Source: Alphaproteobacteria bacterium
GTDB taxonomy: Bacteria; Pseudomonadota; Alphaproteobacteria; JBFXJJ01
Reading direction: 5' to 3'
Assembly (NCBI GenBank): GCA_050175015.1
Contig: JBFXJJ010000008.1
Coordinates: forward strand, 12,415 to 76,414
DNA: 64,000 nucleotides
Part shown: in pieces, positions 42,283 through 62,760 of the stretch
How positions within the stretch are numbered: the first letter of the stretch is position 1
Layout of the letters: each line of letters opens with the position of its first letter
The notes under the pieces: generated by a model
Told to the model about the DNA's origin: nothing
The model's input: the letters and a program-made list of their open reading frames with translations, nothing else
Database searches by the model: none
Made by a program: the position numbers and the translations under genes

Positions 42283-42455
42283 TCGTTGAGCAATGAAATT
42301 GCGAATAAGATAATCCAAGTTTGTTGGCAGGAGAAAAGTGATATTACTTTTCATGTCCTGCCTTCTTAACCTAATAAGACACATTGCGAAAGATTGCAAA
42401 AGAGGTGGAATAATTGATAAATTTTGCAAAAGATGTGCAAAGCCTTTGTTTGTAA
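42283..42455. repeat. Conserved leader element copy A with hairpin (GGCAGG-N-CCTGCC, 42326-42362), upstream of the 340-aa/MTase operon
   Basis: Homologous to 62617-62760 (TCGTTGAGCAAT.AA.TTGCGAATAA...GGCAGGA..AGT..TATTACTTTT..TCCTGCCTTCT.AA...AATTGATAAATTTT..AAAAG..GCCTTTGTTT). Confidence 0.55.
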
Positions 42456-42689
42456 GGGTTTGATACTGGCTTAATTATGCAAAAATTGAGAAAGAACTGG
42501 ATTTTTTGAGAAAGAATAACAAAAATTGAAAAACTTGGAGAAACTCCTTATTTTTCAACGGTTTTAAGGGGTTAAAATTGATAAAATTTGCAAAAGAAGT
42601 GGACTCTTGTGGAATCTCTTAAATCCTCTTAAACTAGCTGATAAAATGTGATAATTTTTAAGGAAAGCCTTGTTTTTCAGAGCTTTAGC

Positions 42690-42980
42690 TTACAGGTTAA
42701 GATTTTTGCTCATTTTATTATGCAAAACCCTTACTATGAAGATATTGTCCTTTGAGACTTTGTAAAAAACATTATGGCTTTGAATTGTGTGTTGAAAATA
42801 GCCCTGCCTTATATAATCAACGGATACGCCAATATAAGGGTTTTCCTGCAAATTTAAAAAATGCCTTTTTAATTCGTTTATGTAGAGGTTGGCTTGCTCT
42901 TTGCCAAAAACATTAAAGGAATAAAGCCAAATATCTCTAATATCTTTTTCGGCTTTATTTGAAATTGTTAATTTTAACAT
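42690..42980 (-). CDS. parE: ParE-family toxin
   Basis: 96 aa, RelE/ParE fold pattern. Start overlaps the parD stop. Confidence 0.75.
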   Translation of the reverse strand: MLKLTISNKAEKDIRDIWLYSFNVFGKEQANLYINELKRHFLNLQENPYIGVSVDYIRQGYFQHTIQSHNVFYKVSKDNIFIVRVLHNKMSKNLNL

Positions 42981-43207
42981 CAGTTATGTTCTTTGTTTAA
43001 AGCTTCGATAATATCATCAATGCTATTAGGGCTTATTCCGCTTTGTTCTCCTTCAATTAAAGCCTGTCTTAAAACTTCAATTTCTTCGATATTATGGCGG
43101 ATTAAATCTCTAACATAATCGCTGGCGTTTGCATATTTGCCAGTTTCAACTTGAGTTTCGACCCATGATTTCATGGTGTTTGGTAAAGATATATTCATTG
43201 TTGCCAT
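42980..43207 (-). CDS. parD: ParD-family antitoxin (RHH/CopG-like)
   Basis: 75 aa. YANASDYVRDLIRHN motif typical of ParD. Confidence 0.7.
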   Translation of the reverse strand: MATMNISLPNTMKSWVETQVETGKYANASDYVRDLIRHNIEEIEVLRQALIEGEQSGISPNSIDDIIEALNKEHN

Positions 43208-46506: not shown

Positions 46507-48036
46507 TCACATACCCATACCGAAGCCATAGCTTTTGGATTTTTTTAAGGCAAGTTCTTTTTCTTCTAGGTGTTCTTTATAACTTTTTTGCATTTTTTGA
46601 TAAAACTCATTGTTGGTTTTGAGGGTTTCTTTAATGGCTTTGTAAGTTTCATCATCTTTTTTAAGCTCGGGTTTTAGCTCTTTCATCATTGCATCAATGG
46701 TTTTGCTTTTGGCTCGCTCGGCATTGAGCGTATCAGATATTTTATCATAAACAAAAGAAGGGATAATAACATTGCCGCCAAGTTCTTCAATGGCAACAAC
46801 CTTTGGAACTGCATCTTTGCCATCTTCAAGATAATAGAATTTGTTTTCATTGTCATACTTAGCAAGGCTTTTAATCGCTTCTTGTGCTTCTGGTTTTTGA
46901 GGCATTTCAACATAAAAAATGGCTTTTTGTTTTTCTTCAGGTTTAACTTCGAGTTTTATTTCTGGTTTATGGGGTTCTGTTATGTGTCTGCTGGTTTTGC
47001 CAGTATTAAGAAACAAGGCGTTTATTAGTTTTTTCTGAGCAACAATAATTGCCATTGCAAATGGATCTTTTAAGGCTTCAGCCATTAAAAAATCTTTCCA
47101 AGTGTAAAAGGTTTTTTTGAGCAAGGATTGCTCTTTTGGCTTCTTTTTAACGGCTTGGTATTTCTGCCATAAAATAGGCGTGTTAGGGTGTTTGGTAAGT
47201 GGCTTTTCGGTATAGGTTCTTTTGGGTTCAACAATATTTTTTGATTCCTCAAATTTACCTAATCTTTTTTCCAAGGAGTTTTTAGAAAAACTCCTGTCTA
47301 AATCAGATGCTTTAATTGCAACTTTTTCATCTTTAGAAACTATCGCTAAACCGTTGCCTCTTTTTTTAAGAAGCAAACCAGCTTCTTCAAAAACATTATG
47401 TAAATCTTGCCATTTTTGGGCTTGGTTTAATGCTTTGGTTAAGGGTTCTTTTTGCTCTTTAACATAAGAATAAAAGCTTTGTTGCCAAGTTTTAGCCTCA
47501 AAATCTCTGGCTTTCTCGTGAGGTTTTTCATAATTTGGCTCTTTGGTTTTTTCAATACCGTTATCCGTTTTAAGATTATATTTCTTCTCCATATCTCGGC
47601 ATACTTTTGAGCGTTTGTAATAATCGTTTGATAAGGTCGCAACGTTGAAAGTTTCAGGGTTTATTTTGTTATAGGCAATATGCATATGAAAGTTATCGGT
47701 GTTTTGATGCGTGCCGACAACTCTTTGATGGGTTTCTATCCCTAAGGCTTTGGCAAACTCGCATTCAATTGCTTTTAAGGTTTTTAAATCAGGTTTTTCA
47801 TCTTTAAAAGAAACTAATAAGTGATAGGTTTTATCAACTTTGCATCTGGTGTTTTTGCTTTGAGTGTTTTCAATATCAATAATGGCTAAATCTAAATCAT
47901 CAATGGTTTCGCCAGCAATTGAGTTTACTATCCAAAAATCAGATAGTTTTTCGCCTTCGTCTTCTGCACCTGCAATATATTTAGCAAGCCTTCTAAAACT
48001 GCTCTTTGTTGTTCTTGGAATATGCTTAGAAATCAT
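46507..48036 (-). CDS. MobA/VirD2-family relaxase
   Basis: 509 aa. N-terminal relaxase domain with the HMHIAYNKI His-rich motif (3-His metal site) and ...TYHLLVSF.... Confidence 0.7.
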   Translation of the reverse strand: MISKHIPRTTKSSFRRLAKYIAGAEDEGEKLSDFWIVNSIAGETIDDLDLAIIDIENTQSKNTRCKVDKTYHLLVSFKDEKPDLKTLKAIECEFAKALGIETHQRVVGTHQNTDNFHMHIAYNKINPETFNVATLSNDYYKRSKVCRDMEKKYNLKTDNGIEKTKEPNYEKPHEKARDFEAKTWQQSFYSYVKEQKEPLTKALNQAQKWQDLHNVFEEAGLLLKKRGNGLAIVSKDEKVAIKASDLDRSFSKNSLEKRLGKFEESKNIVEPKRTYTEKPLTKHPNTPILWQKYQAVKKKPKEQSLLKKTFYTWKDFLMAEALKDPFAMAIIVAQKKLINALFLNTGKTSRHITEPHKPEIKLEVKPEEKQKAIFYVEMPQKPEAQEAIKSLAKYDNENKFYYLEDGKDAVPKVVAIEELGGNVIIPSFVYDKISDTLNAERAKSKTIDAMMKELKPELKKDDETYKAIKETLKTNNEFYQKMQKSYKEHLEEKELALKKSKSYGFGMGM

Positions 48037-48353
48037 AGCTCCTCAATCTTAGCCTTTAAAATTGCTCGTAAATCTGCAATAGCGTTAATATGTTTGTTTA
48101 ACTCTTCAGGATAAAAATTTTCATCAAGAGCAAGTTTAAACAGATTACCCAGCCTTGCTAAATCAGCATTGATTTTTAATAAATCAGATATAGCTTGTTG
48201 CTTGCCAATGTTAGGCAAGGGAATATTTAAAACCGCAAATCTTAAAAGCTCTGATTGTGATAAATTATAAGTTTTAGCTAACTCAACCAGTTTATCTTTT
48301 TCTTGCCTATTAAGATAAACAAGGCTTGCTATGTTTCTTTTATCTGGTTTCAT
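48033..48353 (-). CDS. MobC-family mobilisation accessory protein
   Basis: 106 aa. Overlaps the relaxase start. ...LNRQEKDKLVELAKTYNLSQSELLRFAV... and a C-terminal coiled segment typical of MobC. Confidence 0.6.
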   Translation of the reverse strand: MKPDKRNIASLVYLNRQEKDKLVELAKTYNLSQSELLRFAVLNIPLPNIGKQQAISDLLKINADLARLGNLFKLALDENFYPEELNKHINAIADLRAILKAKIEEL

Positions 48354-48355: not shown

Positions 48356-48673
48356 CTAAAGCTCTTCATCAGGAATTTTTCTCTTTGGATCAAAATGAAA
48401 CTTTTTAATCTCGTGAGGATTATCAGAGCTTAATCTTTTTTCTTCTGCTTCTTTGCGGGCTAAAAGCCTTAAATCTTCAGGGTGCATAAAATCTTTTAGA
48501 TTGATGTGCTTTTTGATAAATCGATAAAAAGATGCTTTAGAGCAGGTTATTTCTCTTTTTTCCTTTAGCTCGTTATAAATGCTATGCCTTGTATAGCCTT
48601 GTTTAAGCAAAAGCCTGATTTTGGCAGTTTTTGCGATTAGTTCATATCTAACTTGGGCGTAATATTTAGTCAT
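48356..48673 (-). CDS. Small hypothetical DNA-binding protein (HTH-like)
   Basis: 105-aa ORF directly downstream of the iteron cluster. CSKASFYRFIKKH resembles a recognition helix. Confidence 0.3.
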   Translation of the reverse strand: MTKYYAQVRYELIAKTAKIRLLLKQGYTRHSIYNELKEKREITCSKASFYRFIKKHINLKDFMHPEDLRLLARKEAEEKRLSSDNPHEIKKFHFDPKRKIPDEEL

Positions 48674-50624
48674 TTTGGTTTCCTCCTAAATCTTGATGGT
48701 TAAAATTGCTACCCTCTACATATCTACAACTGTTGTTTTCCAATTGTTTGCTAAGATAAATTTTATTATCTGGTAGAGGGTTTGTAGAGGGTTGGTTATG
48801 ATTAAAGTTGTTGTTTTCTCTATGTTGTAGAGGGGTAGAGGGTTTAATCAGGTATCTGGAGAACGCATCTTTAAAATGCTCCTTGTGGTAACATTTTAAA
48901 TTTTTATCATTCATTCTTTTTTGATGAGACTTAATGCCAAAATCTTTTAAGATTGCGGATAATTGAAGCGGGGTTATCGGTTGATTAAATCGCCATTCAT
49001 TCCAAGGGCTTTCATCAATATCGGCAAGTTTTAAGCATAGCTCTTGAGAAGAAATAAAGCTTAATGGGTATTCTTTAAAAATATCTCTTATGTCGTTTAA
49101 CAAAAGGGTTTTAATCGAGCTGTCATCATCAGCATAACCAATACTATCTGTGGTGTTCATCGCTATATTGGCAAGTTCTAGCCAATCCCTCCCTGCAAGT
49201 TCAGCAATCGCTAAAAGAGGTCGCCAATTATCGGCGGTTCTATCATTTATCTGATTAGAGATTGTCGGGTCTGCTTCCTGAAGCTTTAAAAAGTTATCAT
49301 CTGCAAAACGACTGCATTTTTGTTTTATAATGTTAAACAAAGAGCTTTTATCGCCTCTTAAGCGTTCAACAGTTTCTCCAGCAAATTTTCTTCGCATCGT
49401 GATAATAATGCTTCTATCAGCTATGGTATCAGCGAGCTTGCCAATTCCTGCAATTGCACAAGGGCAGAAACAAGAAAAGATTCTAACGCTATAACCTTTG
49501 TGGGCTTCAACATTGCGGATTACTCCGCCGCCTTTAATATGCCCTTCGTTAATAATGCCTCTAAGTTCCTCTTTTTCTTTTAAAAAAGCATCGGCTTCAT
49601 CAATAAGTAAGGTTGGGGCATAAGCCTCAATGGTTCTAAACATTGCCGAAGCTGTAAGACTTGATACTCTTAAAGATTTACAACAAAGAAAATCCAAAAG
49701 CATAAGTAGGGTTGTTTTGCCGCATCTTTTTTCAGGGGAATGAATAAGAAGTCTTGGCGAATGCTCAAAAGCTTCAAAAGAGTAGGTGAACAAAACCCAT
49801 AGAGCTAAAGTGGTTTCGGCATTTTCTGGCAAAACAAGATATTTTTTAAAGATGTCTCGAAGTTCATTTAAAACCTCAGCCCCATTAACGGGTTTTGAAT
49901 ATGGAGCTGGTCTTGGCAAACTAAGCTCTCTTCCTGCTAGAGCTTTGGTTTCTGTATTTTTTGTTTCTAAAAGAGTTCTTAAAAAACTAATGGTTTTATT
50001 GTTGGGGATTTCATCAGCTAAATCCCAGCCTTCAGGAAAATAATCAGGAATTTTAACAATCGCTACTTCATTCTGTTTTTTTAAGATTTTAAAAAGTTTA
50101 AGCATAGCTTGTTTGCCAGCTTCATCATTGTCAGCCCAAAGTTTAATTTTACGGTTTTGTAAAATACTCCAATTAGCTTTTGAGATAGCATTAGCACCGC
50201 CAGCCCAAGTTAAAACAACATAATCAGGAAAAAGAAGCCTTGCACTATCAACAGTTTTTTCTCCTTCAACAATTAAGATGTTATCTTTTGGTCTTGCTTC
50301 CAAAAGTTCTTCGCCATAAAGAGGTCTTGGTTCAGAAAAGCCCTTCATGTGCCAAGCTGTTTTGCCATTTTCTAGTTTGCAATAAATAAAAGGTCTAAAT
50401 GTCTTTTGTTTAGTGCCATTAACTTTTTCATATCTGGCAATATAACCGACAAGCTTATTTTTAGCGTTTTTATAAGCATAAACATTTGTTGGCTCATTCC
50501 ATTCCGCAATTTTAAAAGAAGGCTTTGGAGCATCACTAGGAACAGGAATAATCGATATTACTTCTGGCTCTTTTGTTAAGATGTTTGTTTTAGAAACATC
50601 TATTGGCTTAAAAAAATTAGTCAT
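48666..50624 (-). CDS. Primase/replication protein (Toprim domain plus C-terminal P-loop NTPase, P4 alpha / D5-like)
   Basis: 652 aa. Toprim acidic motifs LIVEGEKTVDSA...LWADNDEAGKQA. Walker A SPEKRCGKTTL and Walker B LLIDEAD. The low-complexity C-terminal tail overlaps the iterons. Confidence 0.7.
   Translation of the reverse strand: MTNFFKPIDVSKTNILTKEPEVISIIPVPSDAPKPSFKIAEWNEPTNVYAYKNAKNKLVGYIARYEKVNGTKQKTFRPFIYCKLENGKTAWHMKGFSEPRPLYGEELLEARPKDNILIVEGEKTVDSARLLFPDYVVLTWAGGANAISKANWSILQNRKIKLWADNDEAGKQAMLKLFKILKKQNEVAIVKIPDYFPEGWDLADEIPNNKTISFLRTLLETKNTETKALAGRELSLPRPAPYSKPVNGAEVLNELRDIFKKYLVLPENAETTLALWVLFTYSFEAFEHSPRLLIHSPEKRCGKTTLLMLLDFLCCKSLRVSSLTASAMFRTIEAYAPTLLIDEADAFLKEKEELRGIINEGHIKGGGVIRNVEAHKGYSVRIFSCFCPCAIAGIGKLADTIADRSIIITMRRKFAGETVERLRGDKSSLFNIIKQKCSRFADDNFLKLQEADPTISNQINDRTADNWRPLLAIAELAGRDWLELANIAMNTTDSIGYADDDSSIKTLLLNDIRDIFKEYPLSFISSQELCLKLADIDESPWNEWRFNQPITPLQLSAILKDFGIKSHQKRMNDKNLKCYHKEHFKDAFSRYLIKPSTPLQHRENNNFNHNQPSTNPLPDNKIYLSKQLENNSCRYVEGSNFNHQDLGGNQND
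48711..48845. repeat. Iteron cluster (CCCTCTAC / GTAGAGGG), copy 2, adjacent to the primase gene; candidate replication origin
   Basis: CCCTCTACATATCTACAA, then GTAGAGGG at 48773, 48784, 48825 and 48834. Same architecture as 29054-29190. Confidence 0.55.
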
Positions 50625-50941
50625 AGTTCTACCCCCAGCATTTGTGCGAGGTTGTGTAAGGCTTCAAGCTGGGTTGAGTTGGTTAAATAAGCAGCTAGTG
50701 AAACAACATCGCTTCCCTTATCGCCAGTGGCAAAGTCTGCCCATTTACCAGTTTGTATATTTACTTTAAAAGAGCCCTTGCTCTTATCGCTTCTGGTAGG
50801 GTTAAGTGCGATCCACTCGCAACCTTGCTTAACGCCACCAGGTAGCCATCTAGCTAAAATTGTAGGTAAAACCGATAAAGCAACATTATTAACCTTTGCA
50901 AAATCCGCTTTACCCAAGTTGGATAAGTAAATTTTACTCAT
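50621..50941 (-). CDS. Hypothetical small protein associated with the primase (possible N-terminal primase module)
   Basis: 106 aa. Stop overlaps the primase start (ATGA). Confidence 0.35.
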   Translation of the reverse strand: MSKIYLSNLGKADFAKVNNVALSVLPTILARWLPGGVKQGCEWIALNPTRSDKSKGSFKVNIQTGKWADFATGDKGSDVVSLAAYLTNSTQLEALHNLAQMLGVEL

Positions 50942-51176
50942 AGGTTTTGCTGGTTTCTATGTCAGAAGTGGTGTTTTCTTCAAGATAAGCTTTTAATCCG
51001 CTTAAAGGATAACGGACTGCATTGCCAATTTTAACGATTTTAAGCTTTACTCTTTTGGTGCAAGCCCAAACTGAAAGACTGCCCTCTGAAACGTTCAGAT
51101 ACTCTGCGGCTTCTTTTCTGGTTAATAAAGGGTCGTCATTTTTATAAGTGGTTTTAGTCTGTTTATTAGCGTTCAT
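50934..51176 (-). CDS. AlpA-family transcriptional regulator / excisionase-like protein
   Basis: 80 aa. LTRKEAAEYLNVSEGSLSVWACTKRV HTH of the phage AlpA / Xis-like family. Confidence 0.65.
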   Translation of the reverse strand: MNANKQTKTTYKNDDPLLTRKEAAEYLNVSEGSLSVWACTKRVKLKIVKIGNAVRYPLSGLKAYLEENTTSDIETSKTYE

Positions 51177-51326
51177 AACGATAAAATCTCCATAAAAAGG
51201 GTTAATGGAGATTATTTTCTGTTATGAATTATGCAGAAGTCTAATAGTTACTTTGCACGTGCAGAAAAAGCATGTAATTGTTTGTTTTATATAGTAAAAA
51301 TAAATGTGCAGCCTGCATGCGTTACG

Positions 51327-52520: not shown

Positions 52521-53745
52521 AAACTTGGGTTGCTTGTTGCGACTTATGCCCTAAGGTTTTGCCGATAATTTCTAGGCTAACGCCGTTCATTGCTTGATAG
52601 CTTCCAAAGGTTCTTCTTATGTCGTGAAGTCTAACGTCCATTAAACCTTGCGGAAGAGCAATCTTTCTTTTTTTTGCTTCTCTTTTAACCGCATTAAAAA
52701 TTCTTAAAACCGTGCAGGCATAGTTATCTTGGCTTTTTACTTCGGTTTCAACGTCATCAACTAATTGAGCTAAATTTGGGTCTTGTTTCCAAATAGCTAT
52801 CGTTGCTCTTTTTCTAACTCTTTCCCAAGCCTTTCTTGGATCTTTATAGTAGTCATCAGCTTCATCATTGGCAAATACCCATTCAGAATTAGAGCTAATT
52901 TTGCGTTTTTTTAAAATATCAATAGCTTTTCTGGTTAAGGGTAGGGTGAGCGGGTCTCCGTTCTTGGTTTCTGGAATACGCCATTCTTCACGTTCCCAAT
53001 GGATTTCTTCCCATTTCATAGTTAGAACGTTAGTTTTTCTTGCTCCTGTTAAAAGCGACATAAAAATATAATCTTTAGCGGTTTCGTTTTCTTCTTCTTT
53101 TAGGGCATCAAGCAAAAAGGGCATTTCTTGATGTTCAATAAACCTATCCCTTGATTTTTCTTTAAACTTTTTAATTCCATTTGAAGGGTTTTTGCCGTCC
53201 CAACCCCATTCAATAGCCTTGTTAAAAATAGCTCTTATTCGCTCTAAAATGCGGTTTGCCTGATAAAGCCCGTTTTCGTCTTTAATTTTGTTATGAAGTT
53301 GTTGGATTTCATATTGTGAGATAGTCGAGATTTTGCGATTTAACCAATGAGATAAAAACTTATTAACTTCTCTTTCGTCATATTGCCAAGAGCGTTTATG
53401 TGGTTTGCTATATCGTTCCATATAATCTTTAAAAAGGTCTTTGAAGGTAGCTTCTTTTTGCATTTTGTGTTTATGCTCAAGAGGGTGAGTGCCTTCTGAT
53501 ATTTTAGCTTTAGCAATGGTTGCTTTTTTTCTAGCATTTTCAACCGTCATATCAGGAAAACTGCCAAGAATAACTCTTTCATCTTTGCCATCAATTCTTT
53601 TGCGAACAAAAAAAGATATAACCCCAGTAGAGGTTATATAAAGCTGTAAGCCTTTTTCTTTGGTGTCTTTATAAACCTCAGTTCCTTTTGATGGGGCTTT
53701 TAAACTTTGGATTGATGCTTTGGTAAAATTAAAAACTTTAGTCAT
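52441..53745 (-). CDS. int: P4-type tyrosine integrase
   Basis: 434 aa. N-terminal arm-binding (DUF4102-like) TKASIQSLKAPSKGTEVYKDTKEKGLQLYI. Catalytic R (LLTGARKTN), HDIRRTFGS and Y (VYARL). Confidence 0.85.
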   Translation of the reverse strand: MTKVFNFTKASIQSLKAPSKGTEVYKDTKEKGLQLYITSTGVISFFVRKRIDGKDERVILGSFPDMTVENARKKATIAKAKISEGTHPLEHKHKMQKEATFKDLFKDYMERYSKPHKRSWQYDEREVNKFLSHWLNRKISTISQYEIQQLHNKIKDENGLYQANRILERIRAIFNKAIEWGWDGKNPSNGIKKFKEKSRDRFIEHQEMPFLLDALKEEENETAKDYIFMSLLTGARKTNVLTMKWEEIHWEREEWRIPETKNGDPLTLPLTRKAIDILKKRKISSNSEWVFANDEADDYYKDPRKAWERVRKRATIAIWKQDPNLAQLVDDVETEVKSQDNYACTVLRIFNAVKREAKKRKIALPQGLMDVRLHDIRRTFGSYQAMNGVSLEIIGKTLGHKSQQATQVYARLQQDTIRKSIDDAVNIIEQLENK

Positions 53746-53946
53746 ATTGTCGCACTCGAAAAATAATTGGTTGCAAAAGCTAAGAAATAACAGTATTTTT
53801 TGTTAAATCTCATTGCCGCACCATTGCCGCATTTTGGATTAAAAAAGGGTAATTTTGGTTAATGGCAATTAAGGTTATAATAGGCTGTAAGTGTTGCAGA
53901 GTAAAGGAATATTAACATCTGTTAAAAGTCGTTAAGTACCCTTGTT

Positions 53947-53995
53947 TTTGCCTCATAACCTGAAGGTCGCATGGTTCAAATCCTGCCCCTGCAAC
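53947..53995 (+). repeat. Imperfect tRNA-Met 3'-half fragment; right att of the inner element
   Basis: CTCATAACCTGAAGGTCGCATGGTTCAAATCCTGCCCCTGCAACC. Compare with 24836-24881. Confidence 0.55.
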
Positions 53996-54139
53996 CTAAG
54001 AAGCCCGCAGTCTCAACATCTTACGGGCTTATTTATCTGAAAATTATGTGTAAAAAAATACCAAAACTATGCTAGCGTAGTATGTAAAAGCAAGTTTTAT
54101 CAACTTTGGAAAGTTTCAATCAATGATATTAAGACAAAA

Positions 54140-54973
54140 CTATTGATTTAAATTAGAGATGTTAGATACTAAATTATAAATAAACCAACCATCTCCTGTA
54201 ATAAATGTCTGAGGTTTAGCACTCACGCCATCTTTATGAACACCTAAGCCGTCAGAATAAGGTATAAAAGAAACTATTTTATTGAAATTAATTCTAAAGT
54301 TTTTTCTAGAACCTCCAAAATAAAGATTTTTATTTGTAATAGCTAATATCCCTGTATCGGCATATAAAGATTGCTCCGTTTGGATTCTTTCTCCTTTAAA
54401 GGCTCCTGTTCTATAATAAACACCTTTTGCAATGCGAATACTAAAACCACTGGAGCATCCGACATAATGTGTTTTTGTTTTTTGTTCGATATAATCAACA
54501 TTTTGAAATATCCATATCAAGCTTTCGTTTTTTTGAAAATTAAAAGGTAAATTTCCTTCTATGGTTATTTTGTTAGGGATTTCTCCATTTATGAGAGTTC
54601 TAATTACTGTTCCTTTAATTAGTTTTGTATAGTAACCGTTGTTGTTGACATCATATTGGGTTAAAGAAAATTTTTCTAAAATATCGCATAACAGGTTTTC
54701 TTCTTCTTCCGAAACCAGATCATCTTCAAAGGCAGTATCAATTGATTTTTCCCAACCAGTAGAGATAAAAAGTTTTTTATCAAAGTCTTTAATATAGCTA
54801 GAATCACATATTTCTTTAATATTATTAACCATATTGGTAATGTTTTTTGATATAAATGCGTTATGAATAATATCTATAACAGCATTTTTTCCTTCTAGAT
54901 ATTTTCTTTCACATTCTTTATGTTTTTTTCTAAGAAAACCAGCATCTTCTCCGCAATATTTACAAATGCCCAT
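54140..54973 (-). CDS. Hypothetical protein with N-terminal Cys-rich zinc-ribbon-like motif
   Basis: 277 aa. MGICKYCGEDAGFLRKKHKEC. Confidence 0.3.
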   Translation of the reverse strand: MGICKYCGEDAGFLRKKHKECERKYLEGKNAVIDIIHNAFISKNITNMVNNIKEICDSSYIKDFDKKLFISTGWEKSIDTAFEDDLVSEEEENLLCDILEKFSLTQYDVNNNGYYTKLIKGTVIRTLINGEIPNKITIEGNLPFNFQKNESLIWIFQNVDYIEQKTKTHYVGCSSGFSIRIAKGVYYRTGAFKGERIQTEQSLYADTGILAITNKNLYFGGSRKNFRINFNKIVSFIPYSDGLGVHKDGVSAKPQTFITGDGWFIYNLVSNISNLNQ

Positions 54974-55018
54974 AATGTCTCCATTATTTTATGATGTATC
55001 ACAAAAATTATATTGAGA

Positions 55019-55201
55019 TTATTTGTTTTTTTGATTTATTTCTTTTTCTAACTCTTCAAATTCTTCAGGGTCGGCATAGGCAATCTTGCCGTCTCGCCAG
55101 ACAACAAGTTTTGTGCCAGTTTGTTTGGCAATTTTGATAGCCTCTAAACCGCCAGCTTTTATACCTTCAAGAATTTTATCAGTATTAATTACATCTAACA
55201 T
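55019..55201 (-). CDS. Small hypothetical protein (possible partner of the zeta-like kinase)
   Basis: 60-aa ORF, 3 nt downstream of the P-loop gene. Confidence 0.3.
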   Translation of the reverse strand: MLDVINTDKILEGIKAGGLEAIKIAKQTGTKLVVWRDGKIAYADPEEFEELEKEINQKNK

Positions 55202-55204
55202 AGT

Positions 55205-55792
55205 TTAAATCTCGCTTTCTTTAAGGATATTATCCCATATTTCTTTATTATAAACAATAATTTCGTTCTTTTCCTTCTTTGCTATCAGCTTGCCAGAATG
55301 AGGATCAACATTGTTATAAATTAAAGCCTTATCGGCAATAGGCAGATAATGATTGATAAGGTTTACAAAGCCTCTTTTATATCTGCGGATAATATCTTGT
55401 TTAGGTATATCGTGTCCGCCTTGTGAGACTCTTATTTTTACTCGTTCAATTGCCATATCAGAGGAAGGCAACCATAAAAAGATAAGTCCTATGGTATAAC
55501 CACCTTCTTTAGCTTTTTTTAACTTGTCAAAAAAGGTTAGGCTTGAGCAGGTAGTTTCAAAAGCAAAGCTCTTTTTTGAAGCCATAAGACTGTCTATGCG
55601 GTTTAACATAAGTTTGCCTGCGGTTATGGCTTGCCCTTTGGGGTTAAGGGGATTTAAACCTCTTGCTATTTCATCGGCGTTTATAAATTCATACATCGAT
55701 AAAAACTTGGGAAGAAGAGTCATTGCGGTTGTGGTTTTGCCCGAACCGTTTGCCCCTGAAATCATGTAAATTGTTGGATTTTCATCTTTCAT
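55205..55792 (-). CDS. P-loop kinase of the zeta-toxin / AAA_33 family
   Basis: 195 aa. Walker A ISGANGSGKTTTA. Size and topology resemble zeta/PezT-like UNAG kinases. Confidence 0.5.
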   Translation of the reverse strand: MKDENPTIYMISGANGSGKTTTAMTLLPKFLSMYEFINADEIARGLNPLNPKGQAITAGKLMLNRIDSLMASKKSFAFETTCSSLTFFDKLKKAKEGGYTIGLIFLWLPSSDMAIERVKIRVSQGGHDIPKQDIIRRYKRGFVNLINHYLPIADKALIYNNVDPHSGKLIAKKEKNEIIVYNKEIWDNILKESEI

Positions 55793-55795
55793 AAA

Positions 55796-58700
55796 TTAAA
55801 CCTCACTCTCTTTATCTTTTTCAGTATCTGCTTCAATCACAGCTTTTATGTCTGCAATATGTTTTTTGGTAAAATATATTTTCATATCTTTATCAGCTAA
55901 AACTACTTCAAGTTCATTTCCTTCAATTTCTTTAAACATTTCCAATATCAAATCATCAGAATCGTTTGCATGACAGAACATGGCTGAGTGATTAGGACAA
56001 AGAGCTAAATAATTTTGATAATGTCTTTTTTCTAAATCACTTCTTAAAAATTCGGTGGTCTCAAAATAGTAATTCCCATCTTTTAATTTAAAAGGCAATT
56101 CCTTTTGGCATATTTGACATATCATTTTGCCGTCTGGGTTTGTGTATTGACTGATTAAATAATTTTTTGCTTCTTTTTTTACATCTTCACGGTTTGTTGA
56201 TACTGAGCGAGTTCTTTTTTCGAATGTCCTTTCTGGGGCACTAGAGGCTTGTGCTCTAACTCTTTCTCTTCTTCTTTCTGGGTTTAATGGCTCATCTTCT
56301 GGTAATTCAAAATTATCATCTTCTTCTTTTTCGGCTAAAATTCTTTCTTGTTCTTCTTCAGGTAATTCTGCAAAACGTCTCGCTCTTTCGGCTGAAGCAA
56401 TATCTTTAAAACCTAGTTTTTTGGCGGCTTCTTCTTTCTCCTTTTTTTGTTCTAGTAATTTTAGTTTTTCTTCTATTTGTTTTTTTGATTTTTCTTCTTC
56501 TTCTAATTCTTCTTTTGTCGGCTCTCTTTTTGCGTTAAAGCCAAAATTTATAGCAAGCAAAAAGTTGTCGCCTTTATCATAAGAAAAGCCCTTTGGCAGC
56601 AAATCGCTAAAAGCCTTGTTTGGGGTTACAAAACTTATTTCTTTTGTTTCATTTTCTTGAGGTATCCATTCATTATTTTTAAGCACTTTGATTAGGGTTG
56701 ATTCTGCCATTCTTGGATCTACTGAACCATTGGGCTTATAAGATGCTTCAACTATATTTTGATACCACCAGTAATCTTTAGAAAATGACGAGTCATTATT
56801 TTTAAGCGTATTCCATATTAGTTTAGAAACATTAATCTCTTTTTCTCCTAATACCTTTTCAAGATTGGGAATATGCCAGTCTTGAAAAGATTCATAATCT
56901 GTTACTCGTCCAGAACAAGACCAAACCAAGTTCCGTTGAAGACTTTTATCTTCTTGTTTTTCTATTGCTAGTTCAGTTTTAACACCCACATTTTTAAAAA
57001 AATCAACAAGTTTTTCTTTTTCAATTTTAAGCTTTAAATATTTATTGGATATTTTATGCAAATTATGACCTTCAAATGCAGAATAAAAAGCACTTAAGTT
57101 TGTTTCTTCATACGGGCTATCAATATATAATTGCTCAATTTTTCTCCACTTACCATTTTCACAAAGAATAATATAAGACTCTTCAAATAAATCGGTTTCA
57201 TCAGGATTTTTTTCTAAAAAATCAATAAAAATTTTAATGTCTTCAATTTTGGAAAATCTATTGCCAATCCAATACCGTTCTTTTAAAAAACACTCTATAT
57301 ATTCTTTCTCTCCAAACTCTCTAACGCCCATTTTTTCTAAAAATAATTTGGCATTTTTTTGCTCTGCTTGGTTTTTTCCTAAAGAATATGTTTTAGGTTC
57401 AACTGTTGGGTAAGTATTTTGTTTTCTTTCTTCATTATAAAAAAAGCATTCATTTTCCGAGTTAAAATTACCATCAGTTAATTTTATAATTTTGCATTTT
57501 TTAAGTTGCCATAAACTTGAATAGTCTTTTTCTACTATTTCATATAAAAAAGCATAAAAGTTTTGAAGCCATTCGTTAGTTTTTTTGCTTAGCCATTCTT
57601 TTGAAGTTTCTTCAATTTCATTTTTTGTATACTTTGCAGTCAAAGTTTTTATTAAATCTTCTTTATCCCATTTCTTTATTTGTAAGCTATTAAGAAACTT
57701 ATCAGCATTATCACTTCTCTGCCGTGATGACATAACCCATAAAGGAGGCTGTTCATCATAATCAAAAAGAAATTCCATATCCTCATTGGATAGCAAATCC
57801 TTTAATTTTCGATCTCCTTGCAATAAATATTTAGCAGGATAATGTGTTCGACAAAATGTGGGAGTTAATGCTTCATTGTTCATTTTATCAATTATTTTTT
57901 CTCTGATTACTTCGTATTTATCAGAAATGTCGTCATCTCCATTAGGTAAAACATTTAAGAAATCGGTGTTCAAAAGATTTAAATCTTTGATTCTATGTAA
58001 TGATTGAGCGGTTAAATCAGCTAATTGTTCATATAAGGAATCGTTTGCAGGGGTGTTTTTAATACTTGCTCTGCTTAATTCGGGAACAAATGGTGCGTGG
58101 AGATGGAATCTTAATCCAGATATTTCTTTTTTAGCAGGGAAGAAAACGGAAACATTGGCAGGCTCGGCAACAACAATTTTCACTTGATTTGATAAATCGT
58201 TATTAGCGTTAAATTCTTTTACCCCAGCTAAAAAATCAAGCGGAAAAGCAATGGCAACTTTTTGTTTTTCTAAACCTTTGACTGGAGCATCAAACTTTAG
58301 AAAATGTGAGCTTTCAGTGGTTTTACCATTTATTTGTTTTAGAATTTCAATATGGTTTGGAGAGTGTTTTGTTCTTAAAACTTCACCAGATGTTTCTGAT
58401 AAAATTTTCCAGCTAATTGTTTCAATGTTATTTAAGAATAGCAAAGTTGTTTCTTCAAGCTCGTTTAGCCCATCCTTGATTTCTTCAAAAGCATCTTCTT
58501 GGCTTTTTTTGTGATTATTAAATGGAAATTCAAATTTGGTTTTTTTTGAATTAATAGGACTTAATTCAAAAGGTAAAACCAAATCTGTTATTTTAAAGGA
58601 AAATGTAGGAGACCATATATGAGGTGTTTCAGAGTATGCAAAAACAGCTTTAAATCCTATTCCAAATCTTCCTATTTTGTCGTTGTCATCTGCCTTTGTT

Positions 58701-58993
58701 CCTTCGCCAATATCTGTAATTGCAAGAATATCTTTCTCATCAAAAGGTCTGCCGTTGTGTTCGAATATCAGTTTGTTATTATGTAATGTAAAAGTTACGT
58801 CTTTAGCTTCGGCATCTTCTGCATTTTGCAATAGTTCGTATATAAAATGAGCACTATCTGGGTATAAGTCTTCAACGATTTTTCTTATACCAGTGTGTTT
58901 TTTCAAAACCCGAGCTAATTCGTCTCGTTCCTCAACTCTTATTTTTTCTATGATATTCATTTTACATTTTTCCCGAAACTTCAATAACTCCAA
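55796..58993 (-). CDS. GHKL-superfamily ATPase (HATPase_c, MORC/Hsp90-like) with C-terminal DUF3883-like domain
   Basis: 1065 aa. Bergerat-fold N-box IYELLQNAEDA, G1/G2 boxes DIGEGT...GRFGIGFKAVF. The C-terminal region ...CQICQKELPF...YLALCPNHSAMF is DUF3883-like. Confidence 0.65.
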   Translation of the reverse strand: MELLKFREKCKMNIIEKIRVEERDELARVLKKHTGIRKIVEDLYPDSAHFIYELLQNAEDAEAKDVTFTLHNNKLIFEHNGRPFDEKDILAITDIGEGTKADDNDKIGRFGIGFKAVFAYSETPHIWSPTFSFKITDLVLPFELSPINSKKTKFEFPFNNHKKSQEDAFEEIKDGLNELEETTLLFLNNIETISWKILSETSGEVLRTKHSPNHIEILKQINGKTTESSHFLKFDAPVKGLEKQKVAIAFPLDFLAGVKEFNANNDLSNQVKIVVAEPANVSVFFPAKKEISGLRFHLHAPFVPELSRASIKNTPANDSLYEQLADLTAQSLHRIKDLNLLNTDFLNVLPNGDDDISDKYEVIREKIIDKMNNEALTPTFCRTHYPAKYLLQGDRKLKDLLSNEDMEFLFDYDEQPPLWVMSSRQRSDNADKFLNSLQIKKWDKEDLIKTLTAKYTKNEIEETSKEWLSKKTNEWLQNFYAFLYEIVEKDYSSLWQLKKCKIIKLTDGNFNSENECFFYNEERKQNTYPTVEPKTYSLGKNQAEQKNAKLFLEKMGVREFGEKEYIECFLKERYWIGNRFSKIEDIKIFIDFLEKNPDETDLFEESYIILCENGKWRKIEQLYIDSPYEETNLSAFYSAFEGHNLHKISNKYLKLKIEKEKLVDFFKNVGVKTELAIEKQEDKSLQRNLVWSCSGRVTDYESFQDWHIPNLEKVLGEKEINVSKLIWNTLKNNDSSFSKDYWWYQNIVEASYKPNGSVDPRMAESTLIKVLKNNEWIPQENETKEISFVTPNKAFSDLLPKGFSYDKGDNFLLAINFGFNAKREPTKEELEEEEKSKKQIEEKLKLLEQKKEKEEAAKKLGFKDIASAERARRFAELPEEEQERILAEKEEDDNFELPEDEPLNPERRRERVRAQASSAPERTFEKRTRSVSTNREDVKKEAKNYLISQYTNPDGKMICQICQKELPFKLKDGNYYFETTEFLRSDLEKRHYQNYLALCPNHSAMFCHANDSDDLILEMFKEIEGNELEVVLADKDMKIYFTKKHIADIKAVIEADTEKDKESEV

Positions 58994-61900
58994 AAATTAT
59001 AGGAGTTGCTCTTATGTCCCCGCTATTTGAAGTCTGCTCAAGCTCTTTCATTCTTCTATCAAAATCTGCATTTGCTCGTGCTAACTCTGCTTCTTTCATA
59101 ATCTTAATTTTATCGTTATTTGCCTTTTCTAGCTGGGCTTCTATCGTTTTACATCTTGCCCTGTGGCTAATGGTTAGGCTTTGCATTTTATGTTCAACCA
59201 GCTCTTTGTTTAAAGAAAAATGTTCGTTTTTCTTTTCTAACCATTTTTGATAATGTAGGTCTTCAAGTTTGTTTAAAATGCTCTCGTTCAATTCCAACTT
59301 AATATCAGCATTTCTTGCTTGAGAAATTATGTTTAATAGTCTTTGTTCTAGAGCAATGTCATCGGTAATAGAAACTAGCATTTCTTCGTTTTTAATGCCT
59401 GATTTTAACCATTTGTATATGGCAAAATAGTATGTTCCTGATTTTAAGTCGGCATCTTCTAAAGCTAATTTAGTTTTTTTGATTTCTTTGATTTCAAAGA
59501 ATTTTGCTGATTGTTTTATTAATGGGTGAAAAACTGATAAATAAACAATGTCTGGGTTGTCTTTGGCTATTTCTTGTTCAAATGTTATAGAAAGACTAGG
59601 CTTGTTTCCCTTAAGCCATTTTTCCCATTCTCTATGCTGTGGATCGTTAGAGTTATATATGGCTTTTAAATCACTTAACAATAAATCTCTGGCTTCTTGG
59701 CTTAATTTAAGATTTTTAATATCTTTTTCTCCAGAAATATGATTGTCTTCGTTTTTTAATTTATTGCATAAATAGCTATTCAAACAGTTTTGTAAATAAT
59801 TGGGAGATAAGAAAGAATTTTCAGCATCATCTAAGTCGTTTTGCCAAGAACTTTTAGGGATATTTAAGCCAAAAAACTCTGATTGTTTTTCTTCCAAATT
59901 TTGCTCTTCTTGGATAAGTCTGATCTTATTATCTGCTAGCTGTTGTAACCTGTTTTTTCTTTCCTCATCACTTAAATTAAAGTTTTCTGCAATTTCCTTA
60001 ATTTCTTGGTTTATTTCGCCAAGAATTTCTTCATTACCGCCGACTGTAGATTGAAAAACGCCTATACGCCATAAGCATCTTTCATATATATCACCATCTA
60101 CGGTATTGGGAGTTACTAAATTAATGATGGCAACGGTTTCACTTTTCTGCCCATATCTATCAATACGACCTATTCTTTGTTCTATACGCATAGGATTCCA
60201 AGGCAAGTCATAGTTAATTAGTAAATCACAAAATTGGAAATCTAAACCCTCACAGCCAACCTCAGATGATAACAAAACATCTATGGCATTTTCATTTTCT
60301 TTAGGCATAGAAAACCGTTTTCTTAAGTCTGCTCGGTCTTCGTCTTTTATATCTCCATGAATTAAAGCAACCCTGATATTGGCTTTTTTTGTTTTTTCAT
60401 AAAGATAATTTAATGTGTGCCTGAATGTGCTGAAAACCATAGCCTTGTTGTTTTCAAGGTTGTGTTTATCTAATAGGACTTTTATAAAAGCCTCAGCTTT
60501 TGGATCATAAGGGTCTAATGTTTTGGCATCTTCTATTATTTTTGAAATATCGGTTTTTATCTCATCTATAAAGTCGTTGTTATATAAAAAATCCTCATAT
60601 TCATCGTTGGCATAGTTATCACCGTCTAACAAGCTAAGTCTTTTGTTTAAAATATCCGATAGCGTAGGGACAAGAGCGTAAATACAACTTGAGGCTTGTC
60701 TTCGTATTGTTGTCATTAAAAACTTAACGAAACGTTCTCCGTGATAATAAGCTAAAATCTTTCCAACAATTTCAAGCAATTTATCGTGAAGATATTTTTG
60801 GTCTTTTGTAAACTCAACTATAATAGTTTCAGGTTTTCTTGTGGTGAAATTTCCAATATCCCTTCTTCTTGTTCTGTTTATGATGGAACTGAAAGTGTAA
60901 ATTTCTTCAAGATTCTTAATGGTTTTTATTCGTTCGTTATCAAGTATCTTATGTTCTTTCAAGCCATCATATGTTTTTTGAAACAAAGGGTTCTCTCTTA
61001 TAAACATTCTGCCCCATTCAGTATTAGCAACACTTTCAAGTGCAACAATAGCTTCTTTGTTCCAATCTTTGTTAGCTGTTCTGCAACAGCTTATAGCTTT
61101 GTTAATGAAAATATTGGGGGCTGCCATTTGAGAAAAGCTGTTTTTATCTATAACTAGGTCTGGTCTTAAGACGTTTAGCAAAGTAAAGAGGTCTTCACTG
61201 CCGAGTTGAACAGGGGTTGCAGTTAAAAGTAAAACAGCTTGAGCGTTATCACATAAAAAACGAACGCCATTATGTAGCAAAGTGTTCTGGTTTCTAATAT
61301 GATGAGCTTCATCAACAATTACTAAATCAAATTTAGGTGGAGGATCAAGTTCTAACAAACCATAATCTTTGCTTTTGCCTCGGCCTTGTTTGCCAAACAG
61401 GTTGTCTGAATCAAAAAGAGAGAAAGGCATAATTGCTTTAGAATATTTATGAGGCCATTCGCCTTCTAAATAAGTTTCTTGAATACAGCTTCTTAACAAA
61501 GAACCATCTATAGAAGAAAAATCTTCATTAAAACGCTTCATTTCTATTTGCCACTTTTTCTCTGCCACAAGGGCTTTTGGACACATAACTAAAATAGAAG
61601 ATATATCCATTCTTGCTTGTAATTCTTTGATAATTAAACCAGCCTCAATTGTTTTACCAACACCCACCTCATCAGCAATTAATATGCGAGGTCTATCACT
61701 GCGAATCAACTTCATAACAGGTCTATATTGGTATGGAACAAAATTTACTCTGCCCATTCTAAGAGAAAATAGCTCTTTAAAAGATGGGGATAATATTTGA
61801 GAGCTTGTGAGATATGCCTCTAATTCTTTTTTGTTGATAATTTCAGATTTAATTTCTGGTAAGTTTTTAGATTGAAGTTGGCTTTCATAATATGTTGCTA

Positions 61901-62522
61901 TGGTATTGTTTTGAAAAACCTTATATCGTTTTTCTACGCCATCTATTATTTCTATAATTGGAAAAACTGAATTTTCATCTGAACGCAAACAAACAACATC
62001 ACCCACTCTAAATAAAGAAACTTGTTTTTTTTCAAGATTATTGTTTGTCGGACTATCTTCGGCAGAAACTGAATTTTTCAATTCTTTTTGTTGCATTTCT
62101 GCAAGAGATTTTTGCTTGGTATCATTTATTATTTTTATGGTTTCATTTTTAGAGCCTAACGTTTTTAATAGTCTTTCAAGCGTGTCTGCATCTCTATAAA
62201 GTTCATTGGCAGGAACATCTTCAGATGATAAATGAGCCCACTTGTTTCTGACATTTTGCAACTCTTTTAGCCAATTTCTAGCCTCTCTTGGTAAATTGAT
62301 GATAGATGTAATCTCATACCAGTTTTGATCTAAAATTCTTAACAATGCAGCAAAGTCTAGCTGTTCAAGACTTTTTACATTTTTTTCCCTTATTATTCGT
62401 TGTTGCTGAAAACTAAGTCTTTCGATAACGCTTTTTTCCCACCAGTTAGAATCTGTTTTGGGTAGAATGTCATTTAAAAAAACGGTTAGGTCTTTAGTTG
62501 CTAAAGAAATTAAATCAATCAA
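58962..62522 (-). CDS. SNF2-family helicase with N-terminal Swt1-like HEPN domain
   Basis: 1186 aa. HEPN Rx4H motif LQNVRNKWAHLS (coded about 62237-62254). Helicase motifs ADEVGVGKT (I), VIVDEAHHIRN (II), LLTATP (III), IEQRIGRIDRYGQ (VI). Confidence 0.75.
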   Translation of the reverse strand: MIDLISLATKDLTVFLNDILPKTDSNWWEKSVIERLSFQQQRIIREKNVKSLEQLDFAALLRILDQNWYEITSIINLPREARNWLKELQNVRNKWAHLSSEDVPANELYRDADTLERLLKTLGSKNETIKIINDTKQKSLAEMQQKELKNSVSAEDSPTNNNLEKKQVSLFRVGDVVCLRSDENSVFPIIEIIDGVEKRYKVFQNNTIATYYESQLQSKNLPEIKSEIINKKELEAYLTSSQILSPSFKELFSLRMGRVNFVPYQYRPVMKLIRSDRPRILIADEVGVGKTIEAGLIIKELQARMDISSILVMCPKALVAEKKWQIEMKRFNEDFSSIDGSLLRSCIQETYLEGEWPHKYSKAIMPFSLFDSDNLFGKQGRGKSKDYGLLELDPPPKFDLVIVDEAHHIRNQNTLLHNGVRFLCDNAQAVLLLTATPVQLGSEDLFTLLNVLRPDLVIDKNSFSQMAAPNIFINKAISCCRTANKDWNKEAIVALESVANTEWGRMFIRENPLFQKTYDGLKEHKILDNERIKTIKNLEEIYTFSSIINRTRRRDIGNFTTRKPETIIVEFTKDQKYLHDKLLEIVGKILAYYHGERFVKFLMTTIRRQASSCIYALVPTLSDILNKRLSLLDGDNYANDEYEDFLYNNDFIDEIKTDISKIIEDAKTLDPYDPKAEAFIKVLLDKHNLENNKAMVFSTFRHTLNYLYEKTKKANIRVALIHGDIKDEDRADLRKRFSMPKENENAIDVLLSSEVGCEGLDFQFCDLLINYDLPWNPMRIEQRIGRIDRYGQKSETVAIINLVTPNTVDGDIYERCLWRIGVFQSTVGGNEEILGEINQEIKEIAENFNLSDEERKNRLQQLADNKIRLIQEEQNLEEKQSEFFGLNIPKSSWQNDLDDAENSFLSPNYLQNCLNSYLCNKLKNEDNHISGEKDIKNLKLSQEARDLLLSDLKAIYNSNDPQHREWEKWLKGNKPSLSITFEQEIAKDNPDIVYLSVFHPLIKQSAKFFEIKEIKKTKLALEDADLKSGTYYFAIYKWLKSGIKNEEMLVSITDDIALEQRLLNIISQARNADIKLELNESILNKLEDLHYQKWLEKKNEHFSLNKELVEHKMQSLTISHRARCKTIEAQLEKANNDKIKIMKEAELARANADFDRRMKELEQTSNSGDIRATPIIFGVIEVSGKM

Positions 62523-62616
62523 AAGATTCTCCTTAACTCAACATAAATTTAAAATATCGAACCAAAATTATAATAGTTATATTAAGTTTTAAAGTCGATA
62601 TTTTTACTAAAATAAA

Positions 62617-62760
62617 TCGTTGAGCAATAAAGTTGCGAATAATGATTTTCCCATTAGGGCAGGATTAAAGTAGTATTACTTTTACTATCCTGCCTTCTAA
62701 AAGTGTGAGAAATTTTGAGACATTATAAAAATTGATAAATTTTAAAAAAGCCTTTGTTTT
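62617..62760. repeat. Conserved leader element copy B with hairpin (62658-62694), upstream of the HEPN-SNF2 operon
   Basis: Homologous to 42283-42455 (see that entry). Confidence 0.55.

Follow-up and report, generated by a model that had tools for sequence, protein, structure and literature searches.

The 64,000-nucleotide stretch analyzed here (the window) belongs to contig JBFXJJ010000008.1 of an alphaproteobacterial metagenome-assembled genome (MAG; GCA_050175015.1) and carries two large defense operons, each preceded by a copy of the same hairpin-containing element. A Campylobacterota origin of this DNA was considered and discarded, its closest protein relatives being from Alphaproteobacteria MAGs. 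From its sequence and block order, this element is very probably an origin of transfer (oriT) of the RP4/IncP (MOBP) type. Three copies were found, namely A in front of the first operon, B in front of the second, and C, which lies next to B in the opposite orientation. They are located in two integrated islands, X and Y, the latter nested within the former (Table 1).

Likeness to the IncP origin of transfer

The homology to the IncP oriT covers both sequence and architecture. An RP4 oriT query matched IncP plasmids at 100% over 113 nt, and in pBS228 the matching sequence is located between traK and traJ-traI. As a comparison set we used five plasmid oriTs, the RP4-type one (pBS228) and those from Delftia, Klebsiella, Thauera, and Xylella. 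Aligned with A, B, C, and a further copy from a Sulfuricurvum MAG (L009), they proved to have their blocks and block order in common. In the window copies, these blocks are a nick block GGCAGGA(T/C)A (complementary to YATCCTG^C, where the caret marks the nick), an inverted repeat, and a module consisting of CTTATTCGC, a small hairpin, and CTCAACG. The pattern GGCAGGA-N30-60-TTATTCGC-N4-14-CTCAA was present in all five IncP-type oriTs and had exactly three matches in the window, namely A, B, and C, as compared with none in shuffles. Between the nick block and TTATTCGC there are 54 to 55 nt in the plasmids and 52 (A), 50 (B), and 40 nt (C) in the window. A profile built from the five plasmids had copy A as its top window match, at full length (E = 0.006).

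The finer details follow the same scheme. The nick core of B and C, TATCCTGC, fits the MOBP consensus (C/T)ATCCTG(C/T) (PMC3772185), and that of A, TGTCCTGC, is a variant found also in the Klebsiella IncP plasmid (L030), where GGGCAGGACATGTAAAGT corresponds to GGCAGGACATGAAAAGT of copy A, and in another IncP-like oriT (L045). The inverted repeat of RP4 begins 8 nt from nic (PMC7314908); in A, B, and C it is likewise 8 nt from the predicted nick, CAGGA(T/C)A(G/T) being followed by the repeat arm on the last-transferred side. Over 11 sequences, including A and B, the small hairpin of the module covaries (81% of the cells paired and 13 changed on both sides, a result reached by 0 of 500 shuffles), with arm pairs such as GCACC/GGTGC, GCGCC/GGCGC, GCAAT/ATTGC, and GCATAT/ATATGC that remain complementary.

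The window copies share with the oriTs of IncP-1 plasmids (RP4/RK2 and R751) the nick block GGGCAGGATAG, complementary to YATCCTG^C, the position of the inverted repeat, the order and spacing of the module, a periodic or curved region on the leading side and, in island Y, a TraI-family relaxase that is encoded together with a ribbon-helix-helix partner. They differ in their G+C content (~30%), in the inverted-repeat arms (7 to 10 bp, against 19 bp in IncP), and in being chromosomally integrated, with two inverted copies in one island; instead of lying between traK and traJ, they have cargo genes in the position of traJ. The core ATCCTG nick motif of MOBP-type relaxases is known also from Agrobacterium T-DNA borders and the Helicobacter tfs4 oriT (PMC3772185), but neither has the TTATTCGC-hairpin-CTCAACG module, and it is this module that links the window copies to the IncP group in particular.

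The element had been described in an earlier note on this DNA as a homologous leader of the two operons, and most of what was observed there was borne out. The likeness of about 150 bp between 42283-42455 and 62617-62760, both on the minus strand, was recovered by alignment: A and B have a mean column identity of 76% over ~270 columns in the pairwise alignment, with the quoted blocks kept, and the identical blocks common to both are AACAAAGGC, AAAATTTATCAAT, AGAAGGCAGGA, AAAAGTAAT, TCCTGCC, TTATTCGCAA, and ATTGCTCAACGA. The 26-mer TTATTCGCAAYTTYATTGCTCAACGA occurs exactly twice in the window (0 expected), and the looser pattern TTATTCGC-N4-14-GCTCAACG three times (A, B, and C), against none in 100 shuffles. 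The GGCAGG/CCTGCC stem-loop is present in both copies, with z values of -4.8 (A) and -4.0 (B) relative to shuffles for RNA and about -4.7 (A) and -4.3 (B) for single-stranded DNA. The distance to the first start codon, given as about 100 bp, is 111 nt (A) and 95 nt (B), and A/T-rich repeats do lie upstream of both copies, a TTAAGA-like array at B and a CTTTTGCAAT array at A. Only the "third partial copy" was a misreading, C being a complete unit on the plus strand and inverted relative to B. A genuine shared cis element therefore precedes both operons.

The three copies are not identical in structure. In A and B, TCCTGCC follows directly 3' of the first hairpin, which gives rise to the long GGCAGG/CCTGCC stem-loop, and in the single-stranded DNA fold the predicted nick is at its 3' base on the transferred strand. 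This complement is missing from copy C, which consists of GGGCAGGATAG, a perfect 20-nt palindrome, and CTTATTCGCCTTCAGCTCAACGA. Between the facing nick sites of B and C is an array of TTAAGA-like hexamers with exact spacing, kept in a sister island (L049, see below); upstream of copy A there are two TTAAGA motifs as well, at 42622 and 42632. The RP4 oriT region has a curved, TraK-bound leading side (PMC7314908), and the array, which lies at the corresponding position, may be its counterpart, by analogy only.

Other identities were considered for the hairpin region and dropped. A sigma-54 promoter (TTCGCAA-N4-TTGCT) lacks the invariant GG; an intrinsic terminator would need a T-run, which is missing, and terminator prediction found none; and a derivation of the hairpin from a tRNA T-arm had only the 8-mer ATCCTGCC in its favor. 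This 8-mer, the nick core, occurs seven times in the window against 1.1 expected (among others at 24863-24870, 53980-53987, 62658-62694, and 62968-62975). The T-arms of the tRNA-fMet-like attachment repeats of Y account for two of these, probably by coincidence. Some relaxases are able to integrate DNA at oriT-like sites.

The same plasmid sequences are known to Rfam under another name. All five IncP-type oriTs matched RF01760 (traJ-II) at full length with 93 to 113 bits, and this family is filed as a cis-regulatory RNA. The traJ-II sequence of RK2/RP4 has already been equated with its oriT (PMC6206304). The Rfam consensus comprises an outer stem, a large inverted repeat, and a small hairpin flanked by invariant CUUAUUC and UCAAC. 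The outer stem is formed by the nick block and an ATCCTGC located beyond the CTCAACG module, and it encloses both hairpins. When the window was scanned with Rfam, only tRNA passed the gathering threshold, and no family other than traJ-II matched the two upstream regions at E <= 1 except a spurious CrcZ fragment.

Two nested islands and their exchangeable cargo

The 3' 45 nt of tRNA-Arg(CCG) are repeated some distance downstream and an integrase gene follows the tRNA, so the ~40 kb in between represent an integrated island, X. Its right end contains, in order, the second defense operon, B, the phased repeats, C, GGGACA-type repeats, and the attachment site. Repeat pairs resembling GGGACA-N5-GGGGACA were seen near both ends of X (23340-23365 and 63038-63062), with GGGGCA-N5-GGGGCAC as counterparts at both ends of L049; they are probably arm-type sites of the integrase.

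Inside X, two direct repeats of ~47 nt, each corresponding to the 3' half of a tRNA-fMet-like sequence and neither being part of a complete tRNA gene, delimit island Y. Its relaxase is 37% identical to an RP4-type TraI (E = 3e-58), with the catalytic Tyr (KY) and the HxDxDNxHxH-type motif in register, and the nearest relatives in the database bear the name TraI/MobA(P) family conjugative relaxase. The adjoining NikA-like ribbon-helix-helix protein, a relaxosome accessory protein, is the counterpart of TraJ in function, without significant sequence similarity to it. After the relaxase come a chemoreceptor gene, two toxin-antitoxin pairs, copy A, and the first defense operon. Y is an integrative mobilizable element (IME) that encodes a matching relaxase of its own, with copy A as its putative oriT. 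It has exactly the module set of IMEs with a P4-type integrase, an AlpA-like protein, a primase, and MOBP/MOBQ mobilization genes, and resembles them in its tRNA-derived direct-repeat flanks and its toxin-antitoxin and defense cargo, although its oriT is downstream of the relaxase gene and points into the cargo, instead of being upstream of the mobilization operon. X encodes neither a relaxase nor a ribbon-helix-helix protein of its own; a relaxase-bearing island is therefore nested inside a relaxase-less one, which is among the points new here.

Relatives of both islands allowed us to separate backbone from cargo. A metagenome contig (L019) has the same backbone as Y, from AlpA and primase to NikA, relaxase (84% identical), chemoreceptor, toxin-antitoxin, and ParDE genes. 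It is 91.5% identical to the copy A region from the ParE stop to CTCAACGAG, after which similarity drops to background, and a TetR-like gene lies behind. From the same sample, a contig of only 3,954 bp (L049; ENA ERZ16299754 NODE_15517) holds a whole X-type island in tRNA-Ser(GCT), whereas X uses tRNA-Arg. The integrase is 82% identical to that of X, and the cargo behind the B-type oriT is a small three-gene restriction-modification system (N6/N4 methyltransferase, Endonuclease_7 protein, and helix-turn-helix protein). Its homology to the window starts at the TTGAGCAA...GCGAATAA block, and its end is ordered as B-type oriT, TCTTAA 10-bp repeats, C-type oriT, arm-type repeats, and right attachment repeat. 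The arms of its B-type inverted repeat differ from those in the window and are again complementary to each other. The element was also found in front of a type IIG restriction enzyme in the Sulfuricurvum MAG (L009) and beside the relaxase gene of an integrative and conjugative element (ICE) with type IV secretion genes, whose relaxase is 55% identical to that of Y (L020); in IncP plasmids, the homologous sequence precedes traJ. On the leading (nick) side of the oriT of L020 there are tandem GTGGAAA(C/G)-type iterons (11290-11560, with longer units of ~115 bp), in the same place as the TTAAGA array of X and unrelated to it in sequence.

The converse was also seen. HEPN-SNF2/Sacsin pairs, like that behind B, from elsewhere (eight loci from two homologues, L033-L040) have an upstream gap of 68 to 124 bp, in which an oriT profile found nothing. 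Since the element precedes other genes and the same genes occur without it, the element belongs to the island backbone and the defense operons are exchangeable cargo; the homology break right after CTCAACGA is the border between the two. The generality of this layout, with the cargo after the oriT, is based on five independent low-G+C copies (A/L019, B/L049-B, C/L049-C, L009, and L020).

Copies of this type are rare in public collections. When one genome from each of 185,579 species was scanned for the exact pattern, L009 was the single true relative, beside two chance matches; in 241 million metagenome records there were seven chance matches and no true copy. Viral contigs scanned with TTCGCAA-N4-ATTGCTCAACG or with a hairpin pattern contained only chance matches in G+C-rich coding DNA, while a looser three-block pattern retrieved from them only ordinary IncP-like oriTs (L041, L045, and L048) and probable chance matches. 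No oriT of this type was detected by profile in the ICEs or IMEs that carry distant relatives of the relaxase (L022-L028) and relatives of the integrase (L050-L057), and blastn of the B-C region against plasmids gave nothing meaningful.

The cargo behind A comprises a PDC-S18-like 340-aa protein, a type IIG/DrmMI-like methyltransferase, an ABC-3C trio, an ApeA-like protein, a helicase with PLD and SNF2 domains, HigBA, and three unknown open reading frames (ORFs). The ABC-3C genes (CTD10 effector, MC6 middle component, and DUF2326 ATPase) and the ApeA-like gene, at 33189-37593, are embedded between the methyltransferase and the PLD-SNF2 helicase, so this "operon" is a mosaic of several systems and not one DISARM- or BREX-like unit. 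The three unknown ORFs (164, 571, and 580 aa) are consecutive at the distal end (25056-28975) and have no Pfam match. Behind B are a HEPN-SNF2 helicase, a Sacsin/TmtA-like ATPase, a zeta-toxin-like kinase, and a 277-aa ORF without a family match. The first two form a conserved two-gene module with >6,000 homologues at E < 1e-50 in Alphaproteobacteria, Gammaproteobacteria, Planctomycetota, and others, which often adjoins restriction or Schlafen/AlbA genes, or recombinases; the kinase and the 277-aa ORF are extras of the window.

Table 1. Coordinates of the putative oriT copies, islands, and cargo in the window (caret, predicted nick)
Feature	Coordinates	Strand	Remarks
oriT copy A, island Y	42281..42455	-	alignment, pattern, folds
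Copy A upstream blocks AACAAAGGC, AAAATTTATCAAT		minus-strand reading	
Copy A 10-bp periodic CTTTTGCAAT array	42441-42383	-	
Copy A nick block GGCAGGAC	42362-42355	-	
Copy A inverted repeat GAAAAGT and ACTTTTC	42352-42346 and 42339-42333	-	
Copy A complement of nick block, TCCTGCC	42332-42326	-	
Copy A module TTATTCGCAATTTCATTGCTCAACGA	42308-42283	-	
Copy A predicted nick GTCCTG^CC	after G42360	+	
oriT copy B, island X	62615..62760	-	alignment, pattern, folds
Copy B TATAAT box	62727-62722	-	
Copy B nick block GGCAGGATAG	62694-62685	-	
Copy B inverted repeat TAAAAGTA and TACTTTAA	62684-62677 and 62672-62665	-	
Copy B ATCCTGCC	62665-62658	-	
Copy B module	62642-62617	-	
Copy B predicted nick TATCCTG^CC	after G62692	+	
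oriT copy C, compact, inverted relative to B	62966..63033	+	pattern, folds
Copy C nick block GGGCAGGATAG	62967-62977	+	
Copy C perfect 20-nt palindrome TATCAGCAATATTGCTGATA	62978-62997	+	
Copy C module TTATTCGCCTTCAGCTCAACG	63010-63030	+	
Copy C predicted nick TATCCTG^CCC	after G at 62970	-	
Thirteen TTAAGA-like hexamers	62815..62943		exact 9-10 bp spacing; between facing nick sites of B and C
tRNA-Arg(CCG)	23192..23269	+	tRNA search; 3' 45 nt (23225-23269), left attachment repeat of X
Right attachment repeat of X	63178..63222	+	copy of tRNA-Arg 3' end
Tyrosine integrase of X	23633..24697	+	
Left boundary repeat of Y	24836..24885	+	3' half of tRNA-fMet-like sequence (CTCATAACC...CCCCCGCAACCA)
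Right boundary repeat of Y	53945..53999	+	second tRNA-fMet-like 3' half
TraI/MobA(P)-family relaxase of Y	46507..48036	-	Pfam Relaxase and TraI_middle
NikA-like ribbon-helix-helix protein	48033..48353	-	relaxosome accessory protein
Rest of Y backbone	48666..53745	-	
P4-type integrase of Y	52441-53745	-	
AlpA-like HTH_17 protein of Y	50934-51176	-	
Toprim/DUF3631 primase of Y	48666-50624	-	
397-aa ORF and zinc-ribbon ORF of Y	within 48666..53745	-	
Cargo behind copy A	25056..42172	-	mosaic of defense genes
Cargo behind copy B	54140..62522	-	

Points against, rival explanations, and proposed working

Several results count against an oriT of the IncP type. Against RF01760, copy A scored 19.4 bits over model positions 56-83 only (E = 0.63), short of the cut-off of 40, and B and C gave no match at E <= 1 in a permissive scan. 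The outer stem of the Rfam consensus does not form in the window, where the complement of the nick block comes before the TTATTCGC module in A and B and is absent from C. The five-plasmid profile found only the module of B (E = 2) and missed C. Copy A is not beside a relaxase operon but 4 kb downstream of the relaxase gene, and the traK<-oriT->traJ placement of all five plasmids is seen neither for A and B, which are followed by cargo, nor for C, followed by the attachment site. The window contains no coupling protein and no type IV secretion or mating-pair genes, so a helper has to be assumed and X and Y would be mobilizable and not self-transmissible. Nicking and transfer are deduced from homology only, and the purpose of two inverted oriT units in X is left unexplained by this reading. 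With the outer stem rearranged and scores under the cut-off, we regard the window copies as distant variants outside the current Rfam model. Since B is found by the IncP-only profile through its module only and C not at all, we rate the unbiased statistical support as moderate; it comes mainly from the multi-block pattern.

The first alternative is that the element is a transcribed 5' leader of the defense operons, a riboregulator with RNA switch hairpins or an antisense-RNA target, which we consider improbable. In its favor, the structures fold better than shuffles as RNA, the small hairpin covaries, and the IncP homologue is classed by Rfam as a cis-regulatory RNA. In RP4, the traJ mRNA starts 24 nt upstream of nic and crosses the oriT sequence (PMC7314908), and the TATAAT box of B, kept in L049, would place a start ~22 to 23 nt upstream of the predicted nick. 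Nevertheless, the element is uncoupled from defense genes in both directions (L019, L049, and L009 on one side and L033-L040 on the other); copy C faces the attachment site with no gene behind it; at the corresponding position, copy A offers no more than a poor -10 candidate; and the cargo has its own promoter-like sequence downstream of the junction (B and L019). Covariation in an inverted repeat is equally expected of single-stranded DNA hairpins at an oriT, and traJ-II in RP4 has been identified with the oriT itself, as mentioned above. The term "leader" in the earlier note thus had a grain of truth, in that the RP4 traJ transcript crosses the homologous sequence and Rfam files it as cis-regulatory, but this does not extend to a riboregulator of defense.

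Still less probable is an operator for a shared transcription factor, for instance a dimeric helix-turn-helix protein on GCAAT-N3-ATTGC that would co-regulate both operons. The most conserved block does include a short palindrome, the distance to the start codons is ~100 bp, and the RP4 oriT region is bound by the repressors TraJ, TraK, and TrbA, which control traJp and traKp (PMC7314908). However, the arms of the palindrome vary and stay complementary while the flanking single-stranded TTATTC and TCAAC are invariant, which indicates that a structure, and not a fixed operator, is conserved. No regulator gene is associated with the element, and the genes behind it are unrelated: a TetR-like gene in L019, restriction-modification in L049, and traJ in IncP plasmids. 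The element is therefore not tied to defense operons, and the common regulator or riboregulator of defense suggested by the earlier note is unsupported. Of its three options, the end of a mobile cassette came nearest to the truth, since the sequence does belong to mobile elements, as an origin of transfer and not as a recombination end. Taken as a whole, that interpretation is partly supported. A dispersed intergenic repeat (of the repetitive extragenic palindrome [REP] or miniature inverted-repeat transposable element [MITE] kind) or a transposable-cassette end without a role in conjugation is the least credible of all. Three copies in 64 kb, two of them inverted and 270 bp apart, and the sharp homology break at one end would fit it. 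Yet all window copies are inside the tRNA-bounded island, there are no target-site duplications and no transposase, and the cargo regions end at tRNA-derived attachment repeats instead of a second copy of the element. A genome-wide repeat is excluded only indirectly, by the scarcity of the element in public genome and metagenome collections, and a match to the IncP oriT in such detail is not expected of REP or MITE sequences.

As an oriT of the RP4 type, the element would work as follows. The NikA-like protein would bind the inverted repeat, whose first arm begins 8 nt from the nick, and would position a TraI-type relaxase. This enzyme would cut 5'-YATCCTG^C-3', which is on the plus strand of the window for A and B but on the minus strand for C. 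The relaxase would stay on the 5' end and pilot the strand 5' to 3' into the recipient through the type IV secretion system of the helper. X, with an integrase and no relaxase, would be mobilized in trans, and the relaxosome of Y is a plausible helper since B shares the nick block, AAAAGTAAT, and the module with A; C, whose repeat differs, may respond to a different one. The conserved right end of X consists of B and C, placed back to back with the 10-bp phased array between them. In both island families, the variable cargo slot begins directly behind the CTCAACGA end of the oriT, at the point where IncP plasmids have the start of their traJ-traI relaxase operon. This would be why the oriT copies stand upstream of defense operons, both slots being occupied by large operons of this kind here. 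In RP4, the traK side enters the recipient first and the traJ side last (PMC7314908), and with the same polarity the cargo behind A and B would enter last, whereas a start at C would send the cargo of X in first.

Some read-through from the oriT into the cargo is possible, since the TATAAT box of B and its L049 counterpart give an RP4-like geometry, but a regulatory coupling of the oriT to the cargo as the main role is unproven and unlikely. A more specific version, in which the defense operons would be read from a traJp-like promoter straddling the nick and gated by relaxosome occupancy and by cutting and re-joining, with the inverted oriTs of the X family allowing either polarity, seems doubtful to us; the location of the cargo slot would then be no accident. 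In that case, the operons would be silent under the relaxosome and induced in donors during transfer, recipients would express them only after the island had recircularized, and a helper could move islands of the X family with the cargo first or last.

Relation to known elements and minor features

This oriT family, IMEs with P4-type integrase, primase, and MOBP modules, and relaxase-less islands with only an oriT have already been described. Such relaxase-less islands include the mobilizable genomic islands that mimic the SXT/R391 oriT. Others have been named iOriT, and most defense systems of ICEs, IMEs, and iOriTs are reported to be close to the oriT (Ares-Arroyo et al. 2026 preprint, 10.64898/2026.01.13.699239). 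X has the features of an iOriT, i.e., tRNA-Arg repeats, an integrase, oriTs B and C, and no relaxase or mating-pair genes of its own, with the proviso that it now contains Y, which has a relaxase. The 3.9-kb L049 is similar, with integrase, attachment sites, cargo, and oriT and without a relaxase or mating apparatus, and in both islands the defense genes adjoin the oriT. In contrast to that study, the host here is an alphaproteobacterial MAG, outside the six species covered there, the oriT belongs to the IncP type, X has two inverted oriT units around a phased array, and the putative helper relaxase is on an island nested within it. Besides the nesting, what is new is a low-G+C, structurally rearranged IncP oriT variant missed by current models, the cargo slot exactly at the position of traJ, and an island family that has an inverted oriT pair around a phased array as its conserved end, down to a 3.9-kb member.

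For annotation, a false lead (a "defense-operon riboregulator") is removed, and a conserved hairpin in front of island defense cargo can be a transfer origin. The 40-kb defense island can be marked as a nested pair of conjugatively mobilizable elements, and the range of the RP4-type oriT (Rfam traJ-II) is extended to low-G+C alphaproteobacterial islands and a Sulfuricurvum genome, below the current Rfam model. With one integrase, one restriction-modification system, and two back-to-back origins, L049 is a convenient model for relaxase-less hitchhiking and for the question of why defense genes cluster next to oriTs.

Two minor features surround the chemoreceptor gene of Y. A perfect (TC)17.5 run at 46430-46464, between the relaxase stop codon and the chemoreceptor start (46355, minus strand) and 75 to 110 bp upstream of the latter, could act as a slipped-strand expression switch of this gene. 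Direct repeats of 45 nt (93% identical), at 43283-43327 and 46503-46547, bracket the chemoreceptor gene together with the Gp49/HI1420 toxin-antitoxin pair, which suggests an old insertion just behind the relaxase gene; L019 has this insert as well.

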